Virus record (IMG/VR): IMGVR_UViG_3300031884_000939
Coordinates: 32,001 to 96,000 of that record
Length of the DNA: 64,000 bases
Strand: one strand, 5' to 3'
Source of the DNA: a virus
Shown: piece by piece, positions 8,940 through 62,480 of the stretch
Numbering within the stretch: position 1 is the stretch's first letter
How the letters are laid out: each line of letters starts with the position of its first letter
The notes under the pieces: generated by a model
The model's database searches: none
Seen by the model: only the letters and a program-made list of their open reading frames with translations
What the model was told of the DNA's origin: nothing
Position numbers and translations under genes: made by a program

Positions 8940-9026
8940 GACACTTTTGGCTAAACGGTAGCGAATCGCTTTACCAAGGCAGGCTCCGCCTACACCGGCC
9001 GTTTTACAACGGTCCTAAGGGTGTTC
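8940..9026 (-). ncRNA. candidate structured small RNA of unknown family
   Basis: GC-rich intergenic island; ACACC/GGUGU enclosing CCGUU-GUAA-AACGG, AGGCGG/CUGCCU stem, third stem with AUUCGCUAC loop; TAAATA at 9039-9044. Confidence 0.6.
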
Positions 9027-9027
9027 T

Positions 9028-9128
9028 TTACATATAAGTATTTACCGAAGTACAGTTTTCAAAATGCCAACGATTCATAGCATTAGAGTAGTTGGATATC
9101 CCCATATCGCGAACTACACTTTTATTTA
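9028..9128 (-). pseudogene. homing endonuclease remnant: RNA leader joined to the last codons (MNRWHFENC...)
   Basis: Leader nearly identical to that at 15020-15070; RWHFENC matches RWHMDRC and RWHNNNC ends of the intact endonucleases in this window. Confidence 0.75.
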
Positions 9129-9217: not shown

Positions 9218-10330
9218 TTATTTAAAATCGTTATCGGACAAATAATAGTCTTCAATATTAAATTTATGGATAATATTGAAATCAGTATCGATACCTTCAA
9301 ACATCATACGCTGTAAGAAAACAGTTCGTAAGCTAGGCTTTTTGAGTTTATTATCGAGATAGTCTTGATTTTTATCAAATTCAAATATTTCTAATTTTGC
9401 TTGTTTTTTATACTCAACCCATTTTGTGATATTCCTAGCATCTTGCGAGTTAATACTCCAAAGTTGGAAATCAGTTGAATCATAAAAATGGTGTAAGTAT
9501 GTATTCATAAATTCTTCAGAAAAGTTATGCCATAGTTTCGGAGAGCATAACACTAATAATCTAAATCTTACTGATTGCCACTTAAAGCAAAAGTTCCACC
9601 ACCAAAACCAATCAGCATTTTTTTCTATTGTTATACCGTATGTGTCAGCTGAACGACATACTGCGTCTATTAATAATGTAGAAACTTTAGGAACTTGTAT
9701 TTTGCTGTTTAAGTACGAAAATATAATATCTTTAGAAAAGCTATTATTAAAAACATCAGCTCTTTCTAACATAAAGTTTTTTAACATATCGCTACCAAAT
9801 AATTGGTCGTTATGCTCACCTGTTACTAATATAATACTTTTATCAAATAACCAAGGAATAGTTTCACTATTGATTATTTGTAATTTGCCAGCAATATAAT
9901 TTCTAAAGAATTCCTGATTTTCAATTACTGCGTCATAGCTTGTTAATACTCTAATTCTATCTTTAACTTCAGCTAACGGATAATTTTCTAAAAAACTAAT
10001 CAACATTCTTGTACTGTCGATGCCGCCGCTCCACATAATGCCTAATGGCTTTTGTAGTCGAATGCTAAGTTCCCATAGTTCAGCAGCTCGTTTGTTACAA
10101 CAATCTCTATAAGATAAAAAATTTGATGTTAATAGCGGTAACTCGCTACCTGGATATACTTTAGTGTTGATTGGTTGTTTAAACTGGTTAGTTCTATCTA
10201 CTAACCCAACAGCATTACTAATAGTTTTGTACATTGCTTTCCAGTCAGCAACTTCTGAATATAATGGTGTCGGTAATACAGCATTAGAATTAAAATAATA
10301 AACGGATTTCATGTTTCGGCATTGCCCCAA
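9218..10330 (-). CDS. PP-loop ATP pyrophosphatase (asparagine synthetase/QueC-like)
   Basis: WSGGIDST and LVTGEHNDQLFGS; start may be 10312 (MKSVYY). Confidence 0.7.
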   Translation of the reverse strand: MGQCRNMKSVYYFNSNAVLPTPLYSEVADWKAMYKTISNAVGLVDRTNQFKQPINTKVYPGSELPLLTSNFLSYRDCCNKRAAELWELSIRLQKPLGIMWSGGIDSTRMLISFLENYPLAEVKDRIRVLTSYDAVIENQEFFRNYIAGKLQIINSETIPWLFDKSIILVTGEHNDQLFGSDMLKNFMLERADVFNNSFSKDIIFSYLNSKIQVPKVSTLLIDAVCRSADTYGITIEKNADWFWWWNFCFKWQSVRFRLLVLCSPKLWHNFSEEFMNTYLHHFYDSTDFQLWSINSQDARNITKWVEYKKQAKLEIFEFDKNQDYLDNKLKKPSLRTVFLQRMMFEGIDTDFNIIHKFNIEDYYLSDNDFK

Positions 10331-10977: not shown

Positions 10978-13464
10978 TTATTGACCTTGGATAGACCAGT
11001 CGTAGTCTACATTAACGACAACTTTGCCTTGCTTACCATAATATGCGTATGGATCAAACTCGTCACTAGTAACTTTGATACGCTTACTACTGCCATCATC
11101 AAAATATACTGTCCAAACAAAGTATTCGCCTGGGCGCAAACTTTCATTAACTTCGTCTTTAATCAAACGCAATGCTTCTTTGCGTACTTGAATATGACCG
11201 CCGTTATCTAAGTCTACTGTATAATATCCAGGAGCGCCTTTAAATGCGCCTGGACGGATTTCTCCAATAGTGCCCATTTGTCCAGCTTCAGGACCTTTAA
11301 CAATCTTAACACGATTGCCTAAGTTCTTAGCTTCACTGATAGCTTCAGCTAACATAACATCTAGGTTTTCGATACTTTCACAATGCCATTTTCTAAGTGA
11401 TAATGCTTTACGAGTTGGCTCTCCGTTGGGCTTTTTCATAGGACCCTTCATGCCACTCATACGAGCGCAAAATGATTTGCGGCGCTTATCATCTTTACTG
11501 CCTTTTTTAATTTTACTAGGCTTTTTAGTAACAGCGGTTTGTAGTTTAGATCCAGGATGTTCTTTGCGATAAGAGTCAACACCTTTCTTGTTTAAGCCGC
11601 CGTTTTTATTCTTGCCTGATTTCTTTTGCCAAGCGGCTGTTTCGTCTACAGCTTTCTTTTTAGCAATAGCAATAGCAGCTTGTTGTGCTGGGTTAGCGGC
11701 TTCTTCAACAGATTCATTAGGCACACAGTTACGCACTCGGCCACCATTTTTGCCCTTCTTAGTTCCTTCTTCGTGTTTGCCAGGCCAACATTTGGAAAAA
11801 CCATTTGAATCTTTTTGACCTTTTTTGATTTCTGTAAATGTTTTACGAGCTGATTCATAGATAGCAGGTTTAGTAATATTGTATCCATTACGAACAGCCC
11901 ACGATAAGAAATTATCTGATTCTTCAAGTTGACCAGTTAATCCTTTGTAAGCACCTTTAACCATGTCAATTTGTTTTTGTCCAACTTGTTGCATAAATGA
12001 TTTTTTAGGTTCAGCTTTCTTAGGTGCCTTAGGAGCTGTCATTTGCTTAATAGCATATTCTTCAGCATCCTTGCGTAACTTAGCACCTTCTTCATCAGTC
12101 ATTTCACCTAATCTAGCGGCAGCCGCTTTTTTCAATTGATTAGCGTGTTTGCCGGCACCACTTTGCATTACTGACTTAGGAGCATGGGTACTTTTTCTAA
12201 GAGGTTGCGATAAAGGATTAGAGCGAACGGTCATGTTGCCATCAATGCCCTCATCTACTTCTTGATCATCGCCGTTAATTTCGTGTTCGTCACCTTTGTG
12301 TAAATCTGGATCAGGTTGACTCTTCATACCTTTAGCTTTAGCAATTAAATATGCTAATTCTTTATCACCCATTGGATTGTCTAACTCTTCCAAGCCGCCA
12401 AAACCTTGCCCTGGCTTAGGAGGATTTGGATCTGTACCTTTCCAGTATCCGCCAAACTTAGGACCATCTGGATGATGTGCGGCTGCAGCCATTGATCCTT
12501 CCTTCATGATAGGATTTAATGTAATCTTATCTGCTTTTTCTTTTTCGCCTTGGTTGTATAATTTCTTCTTCCAGTTATCGTGAAAGCGGCGAGCATCTTC
12601 ATAGTAATCAAACTGTTTAACGGACTTGCCGGCTAAACAAACTTCATATGGCTCTACTTTGTTAAAGTCTTGCCAACCTTCTACTTTAATTAATTCATCC
12701 TGGTCAGGCTCGCCTGGGGCAGAATCTTTCCATTCTTCGACTGTAGCAGGAGCTTTAGTAATACCATGTTCTTTGTTAGCTTTTTTACGCCAAGCGATAT
12801 AACTACCATTATTGTTTACACCACCACCATGCTCATCTAAGTCTGCTTTGCGAGCTCGCATAGCATTATGGCCTTTGGACCACAATAAATGTTCTGGCGA
12901 TCCTTTTGGATGCGGATTGCTATCATATGATTTACCTTTAATAGCGGCATGCATGCCAGCATCGTGCGGGCTTACTTTTAAACTTTCGTCTACATCGCGA
13001 TTTTTGTTATTGTAGAATTTTTTAATACTACGAGCACTTGTGCGTGGCTTTGGAGCAATACGATAATCTCTGCCTGGGGCTTGTTCTTTTTTGCGACGAA
13101 CTACAGCTTTAGCTTCTTCCTTGCTACCGTAAGTTCCTTCTTTAGTGCCGTCAATAAAAACTGTATATGTATAATTTGTATCTGCGTAGTCTTCTTCTAA
13201 ATCAAACGCATCTAAATTACTTTGTGCTGTTCTTTCATTATGGGCCAATGTTTCTGCGCCCGGAGCTTCATCTACTTTTAGTTTGTAATAACTGTCGCGC
13301 TCTGCTTTAGCTTTAGCGTATGCGTGACGCATAGCTTCTTTATATTTAGGATCGTTTGATTCTTTAGCACGAGCTAAAAAGTCATCCATTTTAGCATTTA
13401 AGTCTTCAATACGACGTGCTTCAAGGTCGTCGATAGCCCCTTCAAATATATCAAATAAATTCAT
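10978..13464 (-). CDS. modular putative internal head protein (RMF-like, Cys-Trp, DUF6321-like and KOW-like modules)
   Basis: MNLFDIFE N-terminus; many (L/V/I)xE(A/S/G) linkers; KCWPG...NCVP and RRKSFCARM...LRKWHC modules. Confidence 0.6.
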   Translation of the reverse strand: MNLFDIFEGAIDDLEARRIEDLNAKMDDFLARAKESNDPKYKEAMRHAYAKAKAERDSYYKLKVDEAPGAETLAHNERTAQSNLDAFDLEEDYADTNYTYTVFIDGTKEGTYGSKEEAKAVVRRKKEQAPGRDYRIAPKPRTSARSIKKFYNNKNRDVDESLKVSPHDAGMHAAIKGKSYDSNPHPKGSPEHLLWSKGHNAMRARKADLDEHGGGVNNNGSYIAWRKKANKEHGITKAPATVEEWKDSAPGEPDQDELIKVEGWQDFNKVEPYEVCLAGKSVKQFDYYEDARRFHDNWKKKLYNQGEKEKADKITLNPIMKEGSMAAAAHHPDGPKFGGYWKGTDPNPPKPGQGFGGLEELDNPMGDKELAYLIAKAKGMKSQPDPDLHKGDEHEINGDDQEVDEGIDGNMTVRSNPLSQPLRKSTHAPKSVMQSGAGKHANQLKKAAAARLGEMTDEEGAKLRKDAEEYAIKQMTAPKAPKKAEPKKSFMQQVGQKQIDMVKGAYKGLTGQLEESDNFLSWAVRNGYNITKPAIYESARKTFTEIKKGQKDSNGFSKCWPGKHEEGTKKGKNGGRVRNCVPNESVEEAANPAQQAAIAIAKKKAVDETAAWQKKSGKNKNGGLNKKGVDSYRKEHPGSKLQTAVTKKPSKIKKGSKDDKRRKSFCARMSGMKGPMKKPNGEPTRKALSLRKWHCESIENLDVMLAEAISEAKNLGNRVKIVKGPEAGQMGTIGEIRPGAFKGAPGYYTVDLDNGGHIQVRKEALRLIKDEVNESLRPGEYFVWTVYFDDGSSKRIKVTSDEFDPYAYYGKQGKVVVNVDYDWSIQGQ

Positions 13465-13465
13465 T

Positions 13466-14542
13466 CTATTTTTCTTCTATGTAATCAGCCGATTGCTCAG
13501 CGTCATGTTTGGCTTTACGACGAGCCATATACATTTCTAATGCTATTTCACATTCTTCTAAACTGCTAAAACGACTTGGTAATTCTTTGCCAGCACGTTT
13601 GATACAAAAGCCATTGCGCTCATCGCCGTGGATCTCAACTAATACAGAGCCGCCGCCACCTGAGCCAATGCCAACATCCTCGACTGGAACATTAACTGTT
13701 TTAACTGGAGCTGTTGCGCTTTCTGCGTATGTAGGATCAGTTAACCCAGCAGGCGCTTCGCCTTGTGCCGGAGTTTGATTTGGATCTTCGTCCAACTCAT
13801 TTTCGTGTTCGCCGTATTCGTCGGCATCTTCATCATCGGCGTATTGATTGTATTCAACATTAGCAGCATTAAAACTGTGTGTTCCGTGATTGTATAAATT
13901 TACAATTATAAAATTACTGCGTTGTCCAAAATCAACAATTTCGCCAGTAGCGCCGCTAAACTGTACATCGCCAATAATTTCAACTGGGTCACCAATTCGT
14001 AATTCTTGACCTTCTTCTAAACTATCAGGGATAGCTTCTTCTACATCTTGTTCTTTTTTCTTTGCTAACTCAGCACGAGTTTGTTGTGCTAACTTGTTGC
14101 CTACGCCTGTGCCTTGTTTGTTGAAGCCCGGAGGATTGCGAAACGGTTTAGCCGGAGCCGGTGTGTATGGTGCGTCGGGATCTTGATCAGCTTCGTCGAC
14201 TGATTCTTTAGACTGTAGTTCTAAATCTTTTAATTCTTTTTTCTTTAAGTCTAAGTCTTGTTTTTTCTTAGTAATTAAATCTTTGTCTTGTTTGAGTGAA
14301 TCTTCTGCTGATTTTAAATAATCAACTAAACTTGCTTTAACTTTTGATAGTACATCGTCTGACTTCTCTTCGGCAAACTCAACACCACCGACACCAGGAG
14401 TAAAATCCTCTTCGGCTTTTTTTAAATTATTAAAGAGTGCTGGTTTCTTCTGTTTAGATTCAGCAATATGCTCATGCTTAGGAGCTATGCGCCCCTCAAG
14501 TATGGCTAATTTTTCTACAATACTATAAAAGTTATGGTCCAT
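13466..14542 (-). CDS. acidic modular putative internal head protein with KOW/SH3-like module
   Basis: ILEG, IAES, VDEA, VEEA, LEEG linkers; LRIGDPVEIIG...GATGEIV. Confidence 0.55.
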   Translation of the reverse strand: MDHNFYSIVEKLAILEGRIAPKHEHIAESKQKKPALFNNLKKAEEDFTPGVGGVEFAEEKSDDVLSKVKASLVDYLKSAEDSLKQDKDLITKKKQDLDLKKKELKDLELQSKESVDEADQDPDAPYTPAPAKPFRNPPGFNKQGTGVGNKLAQQTRAELAKKKEQDVEEAIPDSLEEGQELRIGDPVEIIGDVQFSGATGEIVDFGQRSNFIIVNLYNHGTHSFNAANVEYNQYADDEDADEYGEHENELDEDPNQTPAQGEAPAGLTDPTYAESATAPVKTVNVPVEDVGIGSGGGGSVLVEIHGDERNGFCIKRAGKELPSRFSSLEECEIALEMYMARRKAKHDAEQSADYIEEK

Positions 14543-14982
14543 TATGCTCTAGCTTCTTTCAAAAAACTTTGTAGCATCCAGATAAACTTGTTTGTGGCAG
14601 TTAATCTTTCAGCGATAAAATTTGCGATATCTTGCTTGTTCTCTGCTGTAGCAGCCGCAAAACATTCATTAAGAAGGTTGATCATAACATGGGAATCAGC
14701 TAGTAATTCCTCAAGCATGAGTTGTGCTCTAGGCACTTTAGTTTGGTCTTGAATACGGGATAACTCGTTATAACGAGTAAGGCTAGCAGGAGTGTATTCT
14801 CCCAGGGTGCGGATAAACTCCCCGAGCGGGTCAACGGCAGAATATGCGTCCTCATACACTTTTTGTAGGAATTTATGATATTGATAGAAGTCTTTGCCTT
14901 CTACATTAAAATGAAAGAAATGGGCTTTTAAGTAATAAGCGAAGTCACTCGCGAGTAAAATTTTCATCAATTCAGCCAGCAT
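14542..14982 (-). CDS. dps: Dps ferritin-like DNA-protection protein
   Basis: KAHFFHFNVEGKDFYQYHKFL...D.LGEFIR...WML; TAAATA upstream. Confidence 0.9.
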   Translation of the reverse strand: MLAELMKILLASDFAYYLKAHFFHFNVEGKDFYQYHKFLQKVYEDAYSAVDPLGEFIRTLGEYTPASLTRYNELSRIQDQTKVPRAQLMLEELLADSHVMINLLNECFAAATAENKQDIANFIAERLTATNKFIWMLQSFLKEARA

Positions 14983-15019
14983 TTTAAATCCTTTAAATTA
15001 TATATTATTTAGTTAAAAC

Positions 15020-15087
15020 TAAATAGAAGTGTAGTTCGCGGATCTCGACAATCCCAACTACTCTAACGCTTATAAGGAGCAATCAGC
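15020..15087 (+). promoter_or_regulatory. late promoter plus structured RNA leader of HNH gene (copy A)
   Basis: TAAATA, GTAGTT/AACTAC stem with inner GGAT/ATCC, TCTAAC linker, hairpin over AAGGAG. Confidence 0.7.
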
Positions 15088-15669
15088 ATGAGTATTTACA
15101 GAAAAGATAGCTACCATCGTAAAATATACGAGGATCACTATGGGCCAATTCCAAAAGATTCAGAAGGTCGTAGCTACGAAATACATCATATAGACGGAAA
15201 TCACGAAAATAACAACATTGATAATCTTCTCTGTGTAAGCATACAGGAACATTATAATATACACTATTCTCAAGGAGATTTCAAGGCTTGCCTTATAATG
15301 TCTAAAAGAATGGACATTTCTCCGGAAGAAAAATCGAGGCTAGCAAAAATAACTAACGCAGGCAAAAACAATCCAAGTTATGGGATTTATTGGTGGACTA
15401 ATGGAGTTGAAGAAAAGAAATCAAAAACTCAACCGGGACCAGAATGGACTCGCGGAAGATCTGCTATATTAAAAACTCGTGTATCGTCTACTATAGTTAA
15501 AAAGGATATTCGAGCAGGGGCAAAAAATACAAGTTATGGAAAATATTGGTGGACTAACGGAATAGATAGCATTAAATCAGATAAGTGCCCAGAGGGATAT
15601 TACAGAGGGGTAGGAGAAATACAGAGAATGAAGTCAAGAAATAAGTTGGCTAAATCTTGGATTTTTTAG
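15088..15669 (+). CDS. free-standing HNH homing endonuclease
   Basis: EIHHIDGNHENNNIDNL...EHYNIH; two YWWTNG DNA-binding repeats; antisense to neighbours. Confidence 0.9.
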   Translation: MSIYRKDSYHRKIYEDHYGPIPKDSEGRSYEIHHIDGNHENNNIDNLLCVSIQEHYNIHYSQGDFKACLIMSKRMDISPEEKSRLAKITNAGKNNPSYGIYWWTNGVEEKKSKTQPGPEWTRGRSAILKTRVSSTIVKKDIRAGAKNTSYGKYWWTNGIDSIKSDKCPEGYYRGVGEIQRMKSRNKLAKSWIF

Positions 15670-15862
15670 TTGATTTGTATGCTTTATATTCTTTAGGAGT
15701 ATTAGGAGTAAGATCGTTAGTTTCGACACCTGTAAAGAATGAGCCCTGGGGTATTCTTCGCTGTACGGCTCCTAGAGGAGTAGCCACGGGCGCAATACTT
15801 CCTGCGCTAGTACTAGCTACACTGGCGTCTTCTTTTAACCCTATAATTTCAAATAGTTTCAT
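15650..15862 (-). CDS. small putative internal head protein
   Basis: MKLFEII...LKEDAS N-terminus shared with the flanking modular proteins. Confidence 0.55.
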   Translation of the reverse strand: MKLFEIIGLKEDASVASTSAGSIAPVATPLGAVQRRIPQGSFFTGVETNDLTPNTPKEYKAYKSTKKSKI

Positions 15863-31871: not shown

Positions 31872-32279
31872 TTAAGGTAAAATGTTGCTGGCTATTATAC
31901 TAGCCCAACGCTCAGCATCTTGTTCTGTTACACGATAATCGTATGTTTTAGGGCTTTTAAATAAGGCATTAGTATCAGCAAATCTGCCCTCTTTAATAGT
32001 ATCTACCCATATTGTAATCTCCGGGGCAAATATTTCACGCATTTCTAGTAATGGGCATACGAAATCAGCAATAGCATATTCTGATTCACTTGCGTCACAT
32101 AGTTCACGCATACGACGACTTTGACGAATTCTTCCTTCTTCGCTAAAGTCCCAATCGTTAAATTGTGCTCTAATTTCGTCAGCATTAAAATGCTGTGCGT
32201 TAATTTTTTCTACTAAGGATTTTGCTAAGGTAGTTTTTCCTGAGCCAGGAAGGCCCAGGATTAAAATACGATGTGCCAT
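31872..32279 (-). CDS. P-loop kinase, adenylyl-sulfate kinase-like
   Basis: GLPGSGKTT, NADEIR...DWDFSEEGRIRQ, DFVCP. Confidence 0.75.
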   Translation of the reverse strand: MAHRILILGLPGSGKTTLAKSLVEKINAQHFNADEIRAQFNDWDFSEEGRIRQSRRMRELCDASESEYAIADFVCPLLEMREIFAPEITIWVDTIKEGRFADTNALFKSPKTYDYRVTEQDAERWASIIASNILP

Positions 32280-33684: not shown

Positions 33685-33873
33685 AGTAATGTATTTAGTT
33701 AAATGGAAAGGTTAAGGTTATTTTGAAATTTAAGCGCAGAACAGCACTTTGGACTATTACTTATGCTTGAAATATAAGATATTAACACCCATAGAATATA
33801 AAAATCATGGGTCGTAAATACTCTTGACAGCAAGGTGCTGTCGGAAGTAACTCAACTACAAACGGAGTCTAAA

Positions 33874-34608
33874 TTGAGTAGACAAAGAGCAGCAAAATCT
33901 CAAAAACGTCAAATGACACATCAAGAAAATACGATAAGGTTCGATCAGGCAAAACCAGTAAAACAGCGCCCAATTGATATAGTTCCTAGAACTAGAAATC
34001 AAGAGCGTTTAGTGCTGGCTTTACAAAGTGACGAGCAACATATCGTTGTAACAGCAGGCCCTGCGGGCACAGGCAAGACATATCTTGCCGTCCTGGCGGC
34101 AATAAAAGCCTTTAGAGAAGGAGAAGTAGATCGCATAGTACTAACTAGACCAGCAGTTTCTGTTGAAAACGAAAATCACGGATTTTTACCGGGTGACTTA
34201 AATCAAAAAATGGACCCGTGGATTAAACCAATTACAGACATACTGAGAGAGTATTATCGTCCGCAAGACATTGCAGCGATGATCGAAGATCAGAAAATTG
34301 AAATTGCTCCGTTGTCGTTTATGCGTGGACGCACATTCAAAGACAGTTTTATTATTGCCGATGAAATGCAAAATGCCACGCCTAATCAAGTAAAAATGCT
34401 AATGACCCGTATTGGCGAAGGCAGTAAAATTGTAATCACGGGCGACGTAGAACAAGCCGATCGTAATCGCGGCAACAATGGTTTGATGGACCTTTGTTTA
34501 AGATTATCGAAAGGGGGTGTAAAGGGTATTGCTGTTTGCGATTTAGATTGTCGCGATATACAGCGGCACAAGATCATTGATAGTGTGCTAAACCTTTACG
34601 CTGATTGA
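33874..34608 (+). CDS. phoH: PhoH-family ATPase
   Basis: GPAGTGKT, TRPAV, GFLPG, MRGRTF, DEMQN, TGD..Q; TTG start inferred after ACGGAG. Confidence 0.93.
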   Translation: MSRQRAAKSQKRQMTHQENTIRFDQAKPVKQRPIDIVPRTRNQERLVLALQSDEQHIVVTAGPAGTGKTYLAVLAAIKAFREGEVDRIVLTRPAVSVENENHGFLPGDLNQKMDPWIKPITDILREYYRPQDIAAMIEDQKIEIAPLSFMRGRTFKDSFIIADEMQNATPNQVKMLMTRIGEGSKIVITGDVEQADRNRGNNGLMDLCLRLSKGGVKGIAVCDLDCRDIQRHKIIDSVLNLYAD

Positions 34609-54072: not shown

Positions 54073-54750
54073 TTAAGTTGTTTTTTTCTTACAGCGATCC
54101 ATGTGCCATCTTTTCATGATACTAAGACCGCCAGTTTTATTACAATGAGGACAAGTTATTACTTCTTTAATTCCTGCCCTTATTCCTACTAACTCGCCCG
54201 ATGCTAACCGAGGATCGTCTACTGATACCTGCATAACATTGCCATTTTTATCTTTTACTGTAGTAGTTCCGGCTGTAGCATTAACTAACTCGCCAGTTTT
54301 AATTCTAATATCATCTACTGCTACTCTAAATTTATTGCCAGCTTTATCAACTACGGTTACCTTACCTTTAGTATGTGCTACTAACTCTCCGGATATAAAC
54401 CGAGGATCGTCAACGGCTACTCTAAATTTATTACCGGCTTTATCTATCACTGGAGTAGTGCCTTTATTGCGTCCTTTAGGACCAAACCCTCCGCCAGACT
54501 CAGGAATCCTATTAGCCCATTCTGCGCTCTCAACTATATTCCATTTCTCACTAAGTCGTCGCCCTTCATTATCAATTACCGATTTATCATCAGATTGACA
54601 TATTATTTCAGTAATATGATTCTTTCCGTGCTCTGCTAAATGTAGTTTCCAGTCAACCCCGGATCCTCGATATTTAAACGGATCCCGTTCTGTCTGTCCC
54701 AGATACTTTAATCCAGTAACCGAGTGAGTCTTAAGATAAAGATAGTGCAT
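54073..54750 (-). CDS. Seg-like GIY-YIG homing endonuclease
   Basis: YLYLKTH..TGLKYLG, YRGSG; three DK.GN...V.VDD.R...GELV repeats; CPHC...RWH..C end. Confidence 0.8.
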   Translation of the reverse strand: MHYLYLKTHSVTGLKYLGQTERDPFKYRGSGVDWKLHLAEHGKNHITEIICQSDDKSVIDNEGRRLSEKWNIVESAEWANRIPESGGGFGPKGRNKGTTPVIDKAGNKFRVAVDDPRFISGELVAHTKGKVTVVDKAGNKFRVAVDDIRIKTGELVNATAGTTTVKDKNGNVMQVSVDDPRLASGELVGIRAGIKEVITCPHCNKTGGLSIMKRWHMDRCKKKTT

Positions 54751-54793
54751 ACTAGTTAATTATACACGATTTACAATAATAGTCAAATTTTTA

Positions 54794-61510: not shown

Positions 61511-61739
61511 TATTCTTTAACTTCTATGTTTGGTTTTTCTTTGTTAGTCATTAGTTTTTCAGACTATCTATTATAAAATCACCAGCATCTCCAAACTCAT
61601 AGCCTTGATGCGGATACACAGCAATATTCCGTTCTCTACGATATATTGTAGTGAGCCAATGCCACTGTCCGTTGATCCGACGTGGTTTCCACGGACCTTG
61701 CGGTCCTTTAATAAATTTAATAAGTGTTAGACGAGATGA

Positions 61740-61808
61740 TAAATAAGAATGCCGATCACGATACTGGACATATCTACCGGCTCTAACAGTTAATAAGGAA
61801 CTATCAGC
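61740..61808 (+). promoter_or_regulatory. late promoter plus structured RNA leader of HNH gene (copy B)
   Basis: TAAATA, GCCGAT/ACCGGC stem with inner GATA/TATC, TCTAAC linker, AGTT/AACT hairpin over the SD, ATCAGCATG. Confidence 0.7.
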
Positions 61809-62480
61809 ATGATATTTATACCCAACAAATACACTAAATGGTATTTTGCCATTATCAATAATGCCAGGACTCGTACTAATACTGGTTATAACGAACAACA
61901 TCATATTACTCCTGAGTGCTTTTTCAAAAACAGAACTCGCAAAGGTCCAGCTGGACAGCTAGTCGGTAATCCTGAAGATCCATCCAACAAAGTAAAACTT
62001 ACAGCAAAAGAACACTTCATTTGTCATCACCTTCTAACTAAAATGCTTGCCGATACTCGCCCACGGGCACAAATGCTAAAAGCCCTAGAACGAATGACCG
62101 CAAGTAATAATAAACATCAACGCTACAAAATAACAGCCCGACTATTTCAACAAATTCGTATCGAAGCCGCTACAGCACATTCAACTCTAATCAAAGGCAA
62201 ACCGAGCCATTCAAAAGGTAAAAAATGCCCTAACATCTCAATGGCTAAAACAGGTAAATCTATTAAACAACCACCTAGAACCGAACAGCATCGTATCAAT
62301 CTTGGCAATAGCCTCAAAGGTAAACCTGCTTGGAACAAAGGTAAAACTTACACTAACAAACCATACAAACGATTAACCTGTCCTCATTGCGGATTAGAAG
62401 GTAGCATCGCTAATATTAAACGCTGGCATAACAATAACTGTAAATCAATCCCAATGGGCACGGAAGTACTTTCCAAATAG
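61809..62480 (+). CDS. free-standing HNH (MobE-like) homing endonuclease
   Basis: EQHHITP...N.V.LTAKEHFICHHLL; NUMOD3-like KGKPAWNKG; CPHC...RWH..C; antisense to neighbours. Confidence 0.88.
   Translation: MIFIPNKYTKWYFAIINNARTRTNTGYNEQHHITPECFFKNRTRKGPAGQLVGNPEDPSNKVKLTAKEHFICHHLLTKMLADTRPRAQMLKALERMTASNNKHQRYKITARLFQQIRIEAATAHSTLIKGKPSHSKGKKCPNISMAKTGKSIKQPPRTEQHRINLGNSLKGKPAWNKGKTYTNKPYKRLTCPHCGLEGSIANIKRWHNNNCKSIPMGTEVLSK

Follow-up and report, generated by a model that had tools for sequence, protein, structure and literature searches.

Here we describe a portable cassette of about 80 bp from uncultured giant T4-like phages, which makes up the 5' end of free-standing homing endonuclease genes and reaches through their first four codons. 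It carries a covarying fold that is selected on the antisense strand of the nuclease gene. Two late-promoter-like TAAATA boxes face each other across this fold, one upstream of the gene and the other within its codons 2-4. The reading we favor, to which we give an even chance on the sequence evidence, is that the boxes are two facing late promoters, one producing the nuclease mRNA and the other a two-hairpin antisense RNA that would cover the mRNA 5' UTR and end at a terminator. In large phages, the selfish elements are chiefly homing endonucleases. The window analyzed here is the entire stretch of 64,000 nucleotides comprising positions 32,001 to 96,000 of the IMG/VR virus record IMGVR_UViG_3300031884_000939.

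A model search of the whole source record (158.5 kb) detected five copies of the cassette, three intact (A, B and D) and two relics (C and E; Table 1). A sequence-only reading of the window had reported copies A, B and C; all three are real and exactly as written there, but the count was low, given five copies in the source record and at least 141 distinct copies among uncultured-virus contigs. The same reading described A and B as preceding quite different proteins, antisense to their neighbors, and this description holds: BLASTP shows the two nucleases to be unrelated (E 1.6), the genes around the + strand copies A, B and D are on the - strand, and the copy A gene is antisense to both of its neighbors. 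Copy C has lost P3, CAGC, the ATG and the - box; the TAA of its + box is the stop codon of the gene at 9218-10330, and its leader enters a remnant, ..NRWHFENC.., that by eye is akin to the C-terminus of the copy B nuclease. The further statement that the two GIY-YIG genes here are devoid of the element is correct only for the window gene at 54073-54750; both copy D and most of the copies in other phages head GIY-YIG types.

Table 1. Features of the cassette copies in the source record (window positions unless marked as record positions)
Feature	Position	Strand	Evidence and remarks
Copy A, + box TAAATA	15020-15025	+	Late-promoter-like, facing the nuclease gene; preceded by AAC, as native TT(A/T)A(A/G)C-TAAATA boxes
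Copy A, hairpin P2	15031-15061	-	6-bp outer stem, two single-base bulges around an R:Y pair, 4-5-bp inner stem
Copy A, hairpin P3	15063-15086	-	Fold and pair statistics
Copy A, - box	15093-15098	-	TATTTA on +, TAAATA on -; codons 2-4 of the nuclease gene, facing outward
Copy A, predicted antisense RNA of ~70 nt	15016-15087	-	Putative start at G opposite the C of CAGC, putative end in the U-rich tail; from fold and geometry
Copy A, HNH_3 homing endonuclease gene (193 aa)	15088-15669	+	PF13392 3.2e-14; phrog_12324 2e-30
Copy B, + box TAAATA	61740-61745	+	Model R1, 70.2 bits
Copy B, hairpin P2, stem GCCGAT/ACCGGC	61751-61781	-	Sense A.C is G.U on -; CAC...T replaces CGC...C
Copy B, hairpin P3	61783-61807	-	Nine continuous base pairs, CUGAUAGUU with AACUGUUAG
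Copy B, - box	61813-61818	-	With flank, TATAAATA on -
Copy B, predicted antisense RNA	61736-61808	-	Model R2, 74.5 bits
Copy B, homing endonuclease gene (223 aa)	61809-62480	+	phrog_655; C-terminal zinc motif CPHC...KRWHNNNC
Copy C, ghost	9082-9128	-	+ box, intact P2 and CTCTAAT kept
Copy D, intact, outside the window	record 15577-15676	+	Precedes a GIY-YIG-like/NUMOD3 gene
Copy E, decayed relic	record 11611-11707	+	Model search

The cassette is widespread among uncultured viruses. A strict seed pattern, TAAATA-N1-6-TGNNGNTCRCG-N16-24-CTCTAAY, matched more than 118 IMG/VR contigs, and the motif scan combined with covariance models yielded at least 141 distinct copies in these contigs; a single complete phage of 360 kb carries 13 of them. 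Nearly all of the strict-pattern matches listed go on to show elements that the pattern does not specify, namely the Shine-Dalgarno (SD) hairpin, YCAGC, ATG and TATTTAY. Among the matches listed, a nuclease gene comes directly after the cassette in 103 of 120 copies. The cassette heads at least seven unrelated nuclease families, GIY-YIG types among them. An endonuclease-specific operator, of the kind employed in I-TevI autorepression, was considered and rejected, because unrelated nucleases share one cassette. About two thirds of the copies are antisense to their neighbors; the upstream neighbor has the opposite orientation in 57 of 83 copies, and in 76 of 115 in a larger set. The stem variants are scattered over at least seven nuclease clusters, and vice versa, with the clusters defined on the N-terminal 100 aa; single-linkage clustering of whole proteins was dropped because shared DNA-binding modules fused nearly all nucleases into one group. 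The notion of a mobile unit comprising a candidate promoter, an RNA and a nuclease thus stands, the element being covarying, portable and common to unrelated nucleases.

No Rfam family accounts for the element. Comparison with Rfam release 15 produced no matches in the window at the gathering thresholds and, for four cassette-bearing loci searched with E values up to 1, no match overlapping the element; a tRNA or another known RNA gene was also rejected. Among 50,697 GenBank phage records, no match was found to the 3 kb around copy A (megablast) or to a consensus-like 99-nt cassette copy (blastn). Model R2 detected nothing in the whole records of Sinorhizobium phage Phosso, Agrobacterium phage Atu_ph07, Xanthomonas phage XbC2 and T4, and its search of the complete S-PM2 genome (NC_006820), with E values of up to 10, was likewise negative. 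Across the GenBank phage blastn search and the R2 searches of named phage records, then, no cultured phage with the cassette was found.

The fold comprises two hairpins, P2 and P3. In the sense alignment (A4), built from copies that were seeded with the strict pattern, fitted to models and are kin by descent, 93% of the cells are paired, 15 of the 21 pairs show changes on both sides, and none of 500 shuffles reached the covariation score; slid controls were 33-43% paired. The antisense alignment (A7), to which the same caveats apply, has 97.1% of the cells paired, both-side changes in 16 of the 20 pairs, and a covariation score of 0.491 that was likewise reached by 0 of 500 shuffles. Read as sense strand, the A7 columns are 86.8% paired. 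P2 contributes both-side changes in 11 of its 12 pairs. The earlier observation that stems change sequence while retaining their pairing is therefore confirmed, with strong covariation in the larger alignment.

Several lines of evidence bear on the strand on which this fold is maintained. In the 10 basal pairs of P2, across 141 distinct copies, the non-Watson-Crick combinations in sense letters are 43 A.C and 2 G.U, and among the 62 P2 stem haplotypes, A.C occurs in 30 and G.U in 2. In 62 of 98 copies, P2 is more stable when read as antisense than as sense (Wilcoxon p 9e-5). The second line concerns the linkers TCTAAY and ATCAGC, which the sequence-only reading had noted as fixed. They are indeed invariant but are actually the two arms of one antisense-strand helix: the CTAAY/RYCAG helix, denoted P3a, is fully paired in 108 of 112 copies on the antisense strand and in 1 of 112 on the sense strand. 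At the Y:R pair of P3a, the sense letters are C/A in 66 copies, T/A in 46, C/G in 18 and T/G in none, and thus U.G, U-A and C-G, never C.A, on the antisense strand. Helix 1 of P3 is 99.2% paired on the antisense strand; the strand statistics for P3 were taken from the extended helix, as the 'A.C' cells of the first model alignment were mostly misaligned stems of the AGTT/AACT type. In copy A, P3a consists of CUGAU paired with GUUAG (ATCAG and CTAAC in sense letters), and the inner helix P3b of GCU paired with AGC, with a 7-nt loop that bears the anti-SD CCUU opposite the sense SD AAGGAG (15074-15079). Copy B folds with -19.2 kcal/mol and z -2.55 on the antisense strand, and no better than shuffles on the sense strand (z +0.58). 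The wobble pattern and the antisense-only P3a place selection for the fold on the antisense strand of the nuclease gene, as would suit a structured antisense RNA. The view of the element as a structured mRNA leader lying wholly downstream of a single promoter is thus unsupported in that form, the wobbles being of the antisense type and a second TAAATA being present in codons 2-4. The A.C bias is independent of neighbor orientation (24 A.C and 0 G.U with an antisense upstream neighbor, 12 A.C and 1 G.U with a co-oriented one), which fits a promoter borne by the cassette itself.

The two boxes are embedded in mirror geometry. Both read A-TAAATA-N5-G, facing each other with inner edges about 65 bp apart. 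The distance from the + box to the base of P2 is 5 nt in 113 of 137 copies, the sixth nucleotide is G in 118 of 137, and the preceding base is A in 108 of 137; the corresponding values for the - box are 98, 93 and 103 of 136. TATTTA starts 0, 1 or 2 nt past the ATG and is accordingly present in all three reading frames. The gap between TATTTA and CAGC remains 5 nt in 96 of 132 copies while the ATG floats, because the spacing from CAGC to ATG compensates, and the base preceding TATTTA is always T, regardless of the codon. Judging by these positions, the second box is a nucleotide-level signal.

Late transcription of the cassette is plausible. With TATAAATA as the gp55-dependent late promoter of the T4 type, both boxes of the cassette read (A)TAAATA, and the flanked - box of copy B has the sequence TATAAATA. 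For the related jumbo phage CBB, ATAAATA is the late promoter that has been proposed (PMC5259590). Two complete cassette-bearing phages, G001 and G002, have a gene for a gp55-like late sigma factor (phrog_12791, 3e-74). Queries with T4 gp55 and with the late sigma factor of G002 detected no homolog in the source record, which is 45% complete, so this result is uninformative. Among the native promoter-like boxes here, C precedes TAAATA in 25 of 55. The + boxes of copies A and D fit this native dialect, AAC-TAAATA, and the - boxes of A, B and D, which read TG-, TA- and TG-TAAATA, do not; consequently, the - box in the source genome may be weak or silent. In 12-13 copies, TATTTA is replaced with TACTTA (TAAGTA on the - strand), a change that would weaken a promoter and that retains a G.U pair in a possible box-to-box helix.

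The antisense P2 has a mean stability of -9.6 kcal/mol and is followed by AC and then, typically, by UUUUAUUUA, the U-tract thus beginning two nucleotides past the stem; in sense letters, the spacer has 54% A and 32% G. In copy A, P2 on the - strand is followed by ACUUCUAUUUAGUUUU and resembles an intrinsic terminator. A simple terminator scan flagged P2 on neither strand because its stem is bulged, and the U-tract, being forced by the + box, is not independent evidence for a terminator. The invariant bulges of P2 would be superfluous in a plain terminator and so are a point against the favored reading.

Under that reading, the upstream + box would direct the nuclease mRNA, starting at the base of P2, and the - box in codons 2-4 would direct an antisense RNA, about 65-72 nt long, with its 5' end at the base of P3. 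This RNA would begin with P3, a hairpin of 8-9 base pairs whose loop sequence CCUU complements the SD sequence, continue through the GUUAGAG linker and the bulged P2, and finish in a U-rich tract supplied by the complement of the + box; P2 together with this tract would serve as an intrinsic terminator. For copies A, B and D, as well as for two foreign copies, the predicted RNA folds into P3, P2 and a single-stranded U-rich tail, this being the minimum free energy fold for copy A. Such an RNA would be complementary to the nuclease mRNA throughout its 5' UTR, and loop-loop contact followed by duplex formation could block ribosome binding or trigger cleavage, holding a potentially harmful nuclease at a low level. 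Firing of either box, termination at P2, production of a discrete antisense RNA and translational repression are the predicted steps of this scheme. Because both boxes are of the late class, the two RNAs would be made together; the benefit of this is not obvious, which counts against the scheme. That the cassettes represent a conserved family of cis-antisense small RNAs within homing endonuclease 5' ends, moving along with these genes, expressed from a late promoter in codons 2-4 and terminated at the gene's own promoter, seems to us slightly less probable than an even chance.

A fairly unlikely alternative is that there is no separate small RNA and that, in the roughly two thirds of copies inserted backwards into a host gene cluster, the transcript of that cluster reads through the nuclease gene in antisense into P3 and P2. 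The two hairpins would there terminate or insulate transcription, or would be structures for processing or stabilization. TATTTA would then not be a promoter and may instead pair with the complement of the + box, closing a three-way junction. The prevalence of upstream neighbors on the opposite strand implies that antisense read-through RNA should exist, and copy A has a consensus promoter-like box for the next - strand gene at 15006-15011, directly past the P2 tail, as expected behind a terminator. On the antisense strand, the box-to-box helix (P1 in model R1) is predicted to pair with a mean probability of 0.49, and the TACTTA variants preserve it through their G.U pair. However, P1 is nearly invariant, with no covariation and no compensatory change, and in its flanking pair the C before the + box is never matched by a G after TATTTA. 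The A.C bias is equal where the upstream gene is co-oriented and host read-through is not expected, a terminator within an operon would hurt the downstream host gene, and the A-TAAATA-N5-G mirror geometry with its floating ATG is left unaccounted for.

Another alternative, that of the sequence-only reading, is a structured 5' leader of the nuclease mRNA, in which P2 would be a 5'-terminal stabilizer or protein-binding hairpin and P3 would partly mask the SD as a translational switch or processing signal. Both hairpins do form on the sense strand, P3b takes in part of GGAG, the + box puts the mRNA start at the base of P2, and in Aeromonas phage 25, seg43(25) has a stable hairpin just 5' of an unmasked ribosome-binding site (PMC2988022). 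We nevertheless consider this quite unlikely: the non-Watson-Crick pairs are overwhelmingly A.C in sense letters, the outer P3 helix behind the invariant CTAAY/RYCAG cannot form on the sense strand, copy B is stable for its composition only as antisense, and a TATTTA conserved in three frames would have no role.

A temporal mask in the style of T4 appears very unlikely. Here, read-in transcripts would pair UAAAUA with UAUUUA and hide the start within a three-way junction, and late transcripts, which start past the box, would escape and be translated. This is the known logic of I-TevI, I-TevII, I-TevIII, segB and mobE (PMC2988022), the two boxes are perfectly complementary, with a mean helix probability of 0.39 on the sense strand, and the upstream stop codon of co-oriented copies abuts or overlaps the box, so that read-through into these copies is likely. 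Most copies, however, are antisense to the upstream gene, which makes sense read-through unlikely, six A-U pairs are a weak mask that lacks covariation, and selection of the fold on the other strand is unexplained. Finally, a role at the DNA level only, as a PeSL-like recombination point for swapping nuclease modules or as a single-stranded DNA hairpin, is most improbable: the intermixing of stem variants and nuclease clusters suggests shuffling at the cassette, and PeSLs are described as composite terminator/promoter motifs mediating modular shuffling in T4-like phages (PMC4122927), yet recombination requires identity rather than compensatory change, the wobble bias is strand-specific, and such a role is compatible with a coexisting RNA function.

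To our knowledge, containment of homing endonuclease toxicity is known only for a few T-even genes, through hairpins masking the ribosome-binding site and through I-TevI self-repression. Restraint by an antisense RNA, on which our confidence is evenly balanced, would be a control not described for homing nuclease genes of this kind. If the antisense reading is true, it would be a different and widespread containment route, with the regulator borne by the mobile gene itself, and the first antisense brake dedicated to homing endonucleases; with as many as 13 copies in a genome, partly cross-complementary, it could then give copy-number-dependent (multicopy) inhibition of all such nucleases in the phage. 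The packing would be tight, one 6-bp box being a promoter on one strand and a terminator tail on the other, and unrelated proteins have their first four codons (M-x-I-Y) set by the second box. The cassette is a testable RNA family for Rfam and marks free-standing nuclease genes in metagenomic phage contigs, and it cautions that a covarying "5' leader" may belong to the opposite strand.

Among known systems, PeSLs are composite promoter-terminator cassettes of T4-like phages (PMC2839356, PMC4122927) and resemble the present element in being small conserved modules of a promoter and a stem-loop that are repeated in T4-type genomes and tied to modular gene shuffling. They differ in combining an early promoter with a terminator between genes of hyperplastic regions and in not being nuclease-specific; they are not known to have a second promoter box inside an ORF or to have had an antisense RNA proposed for them. 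CfrI of cyanophage S-PM2, an RNA of about 225 nt over psbA and the homing endonuclease gene F-CphI (Millard et al. 2010, cited in PMC2984593), resembles the RNA predicted here in lying antisense to a homing endonuclease gene of a T4-like phage. According to that secondary account, CfrI was detected experimentally; it is longer, joins two genes and involves no portable cassette.

The T-even class comprising I-TevI, I-TevII, I-TevIII, segB and Aeh1 mobE combines an RBS-sequestering hairpin with a nested late promoter (PMC2988022). It shares with the cassette the homing endonuclease genes of T4-type phages, a late promoter (here a candidate) beside an RNA structure near the SD, and limitation of nuclease translation, which is proposed here. 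In that class, a hairpin of the mRNA encloses the late promoter, whereas the + box of the cassette is 5 nt 5' of P2 and outside both hairpins, selection on the fold acts on the opposite strand, and a second box is present in the ORF. On the sense strand, only the 3-4-bp P3b touches GGAG, in place of an SD-sequestering hairpin, and only the hypothetical box-to-box helix would put a late promoter in the 5' arm of a masking hairpin. The class lies in early or middle units of the same orientation; most cassette genes, A, B and D among them, are antisense to their neighbors.

A functional parallel is the RNA-IN/RNA-OUT antisense control of transposase in IS10/Tn10. There, the 69-nt RNA-OUT comes from a promoter within the 5' part of the transposase gene, and it is destabilized when pIN, the sense promoter, is mutated (PMC5006887). 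The cassette differs in that its gene is a phage homing endonuclease rather than a transposase, its boxes are of the T4 late type and not sigma-70 promoters, and its predicted RNA would have two hairpins with an anti-SD loop and overlap the whole 5' UTR, ending just short of the AUG. The likeness is one of functional class only, without sequence or structural homology. In both cases, a selfish-element gene has an outward-facing promoter, a candidate one here, just inside its 5' end; a stable stem-loop antisense RNA of about 70 nt, predicted here, is complementary to the translation initiation region of the mRNA; and the 3' part of this RNA coincides with the sense promoter, the U-tail being encoded by the + box in the cassette.

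The cassette, an approximately 80-bp element at the 5' end of nuclease genes comprising an upstream TAAATA that faces the gene (+ box), hairpins P2 and P3, and a TATTTA in codons 2-4 (- box), is real, portable and uncatalogued. Copies A, B and C, from which the sequence-only reading had proposed a structured RNA leader of dissimilar HNH endonuclease genes, match in sequence as given, and two more copies, D and E, were found outside the window using BLAST and a covariance model. The strict pattern TAAATA-N1-6-TGNNGNTCRCG-N16-24-CTCTAAY matched more than 118 IMG/VR contigs, a lower bound; at nearly every match, there was a short hairpin around AAGGAG followed by YCAGC, ATG and TATTTAY, none of which the pattern demanded. 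The sense covariance model R1, trained on 117 copies, and later the antisense model R2 recovered 141 distinct copies, in a set that was seeded by the pattern and whose members share descent. A single complete 360-kb phage with terminal repeats harbors 13 copies, and a 139-kb fragment harbors five.

The source record (158.5 kb; completeness 45%, CheckV estimate) carries nearly all of its genes on the - strand. The identities of its family-B DNA polymerase (50% with the Sinorhizobium phage Phosso enzyme, 43-47% with the enzymes of Atu_ph07 and Rak2/CBB-like jumbo phages) mark the record as a fragment of a large phage of the T4 superfamily. An extended promoter-like motif native to this genome, TT(A/T)A(G/A)C-TAAATA, lies 15-45 nt 5' of many start codons.

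Cassette copies and associated features of the source record
Feature	Location	Strand	Remarks
Copy A	window 15020	+
Copy B	window 61740	+
Copy C	window 9018-9128	-	ghost; TAAATA box, P2 and CTCTAAT kept
Copy D	record 15577-15676	+	intact; 5' of GIY-YIG-like/NUMOD3 gene; outside window
Relic E	record 11611-11707 (L122:2112-2208)	+	decayed; R1 score 32.7 bits; TATTTA retained, no nuclease ORF downstream; outside window
TT(A/T)A(G/A)C-TAAATA instance	window 15006-15019	-	directly past P2 tail of copy A; serves ferritin/Dps-like gene 14542-14982
Terminator-like hairpin	window 61693-61719	+	GGACC-TTGC-GGTCC then TTTAATAAATTTA; ~20 nt 5' of copy B box
TTGACT-N16-TATAAT promoter	window 54751-54790	-	in place of cassette at gene 54073-54750
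Weak GIY-YIG matches	record 12996-13184, 14247-14429	-	below Pfam cut-off; co-oriented with neighbours, no cassette; outside window
TAAATA then hairpin GACAGC-AAGGT-GCTGTC	window 33815-33850	+	precedes PhoH-like gene 33835-34608

The genes bearing copies A, B and D are each antisense to their own neighbours, and the A and B proteins, described from the sequence as quite different, indeed show no similarity to each other. The GIY-YIG-like gene 54073-54750 is a cassette-less homologue of D (44% identity) that is co-oriented with its neighbours and lacks the first three residues of the copy D protein; its promoter lies only 8 nt from the ATG, and its mRNA would be nearly leaderless. In copy C, the intact P2 and CTCTAAT run into ..SNAMNRWHFENC.. 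(..NRWHFENC..), a match to the C-terminal zinc motif KRWHxxxC found in the nucleases at 61809 and 54073; this suggests that the nuclease body was deleted. The TAAATA box of this copy includes the TAA that ends gene 9218-10330; among co-oriented copies elsewhere, the upstream gene likewise has its stop codon within -7 to +11 nt of the box. The hairpin 5' of copy B would stop sense read-through into that cassette. The PhoH-like gene is also antisense to its neighbours, and its box-plus-hairpin layout resembles the cassette, with unrelated sequence.

Across the larger set, an ORF of 96-312 aa follows 103 of 120 copies, and family searches assigned almost all of them to homing endonucleases (phrog_314, 55; phrog_655, 29; NUMOD3, 36; HNH, HNH_3 and HNH_5 together, 23; GIY-YIG, 7; TnsA-like, 3). 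Clustering of the N-terminal 100 aa yielded at least seven mutually unrelated nuclease clusters, and each stem variant was found with several of them. In 57/83 cases (76/115 in a larger set), the gene upstream is encoded on the opposite strand; both neighbours are antisense in 36 cases and co-oriented in 11. Two of the 103 downstream ORFs in alignment A3 encode head-closure proteins (phrog_218, phrog_14892) instead of nucleases; these may be cases of leader capture following loss of the nuclease.

The pairing of the stems despite sequence change, pointed out in the sequence-only reading, is borne out by strong covariation of both hairpins: in the sense alignment, 11 of 12 P2 pairs and all three P3 pairs change on both sides, 93% of cells are paired (33-43% in slid controls), and none of 500 shuffles reaches the score. 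However, it is the strand opposite the nuclease sense that carries the fold, because its non-Watson-Crick pairs in the sense orientation are A.C and rarely G.U (43 vs 2 in the ten basal P2 pairs, with an A.C in 30 of the 62 stem haplotypes). Read on the complementary strand, each A.C becomes a G.U. Folding the reverse strands of copies A, B and D, and of two copies from other genomes, produces an extra helix between CUGRY (complement of RYCAG) and RUUAG (complement of CTAAY), which uses G.U wobbles and brings P3 to 8-9 base pairs. This helix explains the two "fixed linkers", which are fixed as originally described, but are the two arms of antisense P3 in these folds. The closing pair of extended P3 (in sense letters, C/A 66, T/A 46, C/G 18, T/G 0) covaries only as antisense. 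In A7, the antisense alignment of model R2, 97.1% of cells are paired (86.8% for the same columns on the sense strand), 16 of 20 pairs change on both sides, and the covariation score of 0.491 is not reached in 500 shuffles. All pairs of the outer P3 helix form in 108/112 copies as antisense vs 1/112 as sense, and P2 is more stable on the antisense strand. Thus, the fold is very probably selected on the antisense strand. The P2 bulges are invariant across copies, and the antisense model assigns them no role. The same P2 apical loop is found in opposite orientations in different copies (e.g. CGCCAA in some, its reverse complement TTGGCG in others), which looks like an inversion of the hairpin tip.

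The TATTTA of the - box (TAAATA on the other strand) starts 0, 1 or 2 nt past the ATG, so its conservation extends over all three reading frames; it imposes a common N-terminus (M-Y-L, M-I-F-I or M-x-I-Y) on unrelated nucleases and places the cassette boundary inside the ORF. Its distance to CAGC is 5 nt in 96/132 copies, kept steady by compensating CAGC-to-ATG spacing, and the base 5' of it is T regardless of codon; together, these features make it a nucleotide-level signal. The + and - boxes are mirror images: an A precedes the box (108/137 and 103/136, respectively), 5 nt separate it from the helix base (113/137 and 98/136), reaching the first base of P2 and P3, respectively, and the sixth nucleotide is G (118/137 and 93/136). 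The inner edges are 61-70 bp apart, most commonly 65 bp. The two boxes could pair with each other, but the resulting helix never covaries, and the flanking pair shows no compensation.

We propose instead that the boxes act as late promoters that face each other. The + box would yield the nuclease mRNA, and the - box an antisense RNA of ~65-72 nt consisting of G, P3 with an anti-Shine-Dalgarno CCUU loop, GUUAGAG, the bulged hairpin P2, and then AC and a U-rich tract. This terminator-like tract is the complement of the + box, so that one box would serve as a promoter on one strand and a terminator tail on the other. Spanning the entire 5' UTR of the nuclease mRNA, the antisense RNA would keep ribosomes from binding or cause cleavage. 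Late transcription is supported by the gp55-like late sigma factor encoded in complete cassette-bearing phages and by the late promoter proposed for CBB, a related jumbo phage, which reads ATAAATA (PMC5259590); gp55 had no match in the source record, which is partial (45% complete). The A.C bias is equal with an antisense or a co-oriented upstream gene, which fits a promoter carried by the cassette itself. Weak points include that both promoters belong to the same temporal class and that the - boxes depart from the native form of the source genome, usually C before TAAATA, with which the + boxes of A and D agree. Judging from sequence, the complete model, in which a discrete antisense RNA represses the nuclease, is about as likely as not.

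The sequence-only reading could assign no known family, and no Rfam family matches the cassette even at E up to 1; nor was there a match in GenBank phage records. Model R2 detected nothing in T4, S-PM2, Phosso, Atu_ph07 and XbC2. The known nuclease controls of T-even phages are hairpins on the sense strand that hide the ribosome-binding site and contain a late promoter (PMC2988022); three of their defining features were checked, and the cassette shows none of these. CfrI, detected in cyanophage S-PM2 as an antisense transcript across a homing endonuclease gene (PMC2984593), does not belong to the cassette family, given the lack of an R2 match in that phage. PeSL promoter-terminator cassettes offer a looser parallel, for portability. 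By mechanism, the closest analogue is RNA-OUT/RNA-IN of IS10 (PMC5006887).
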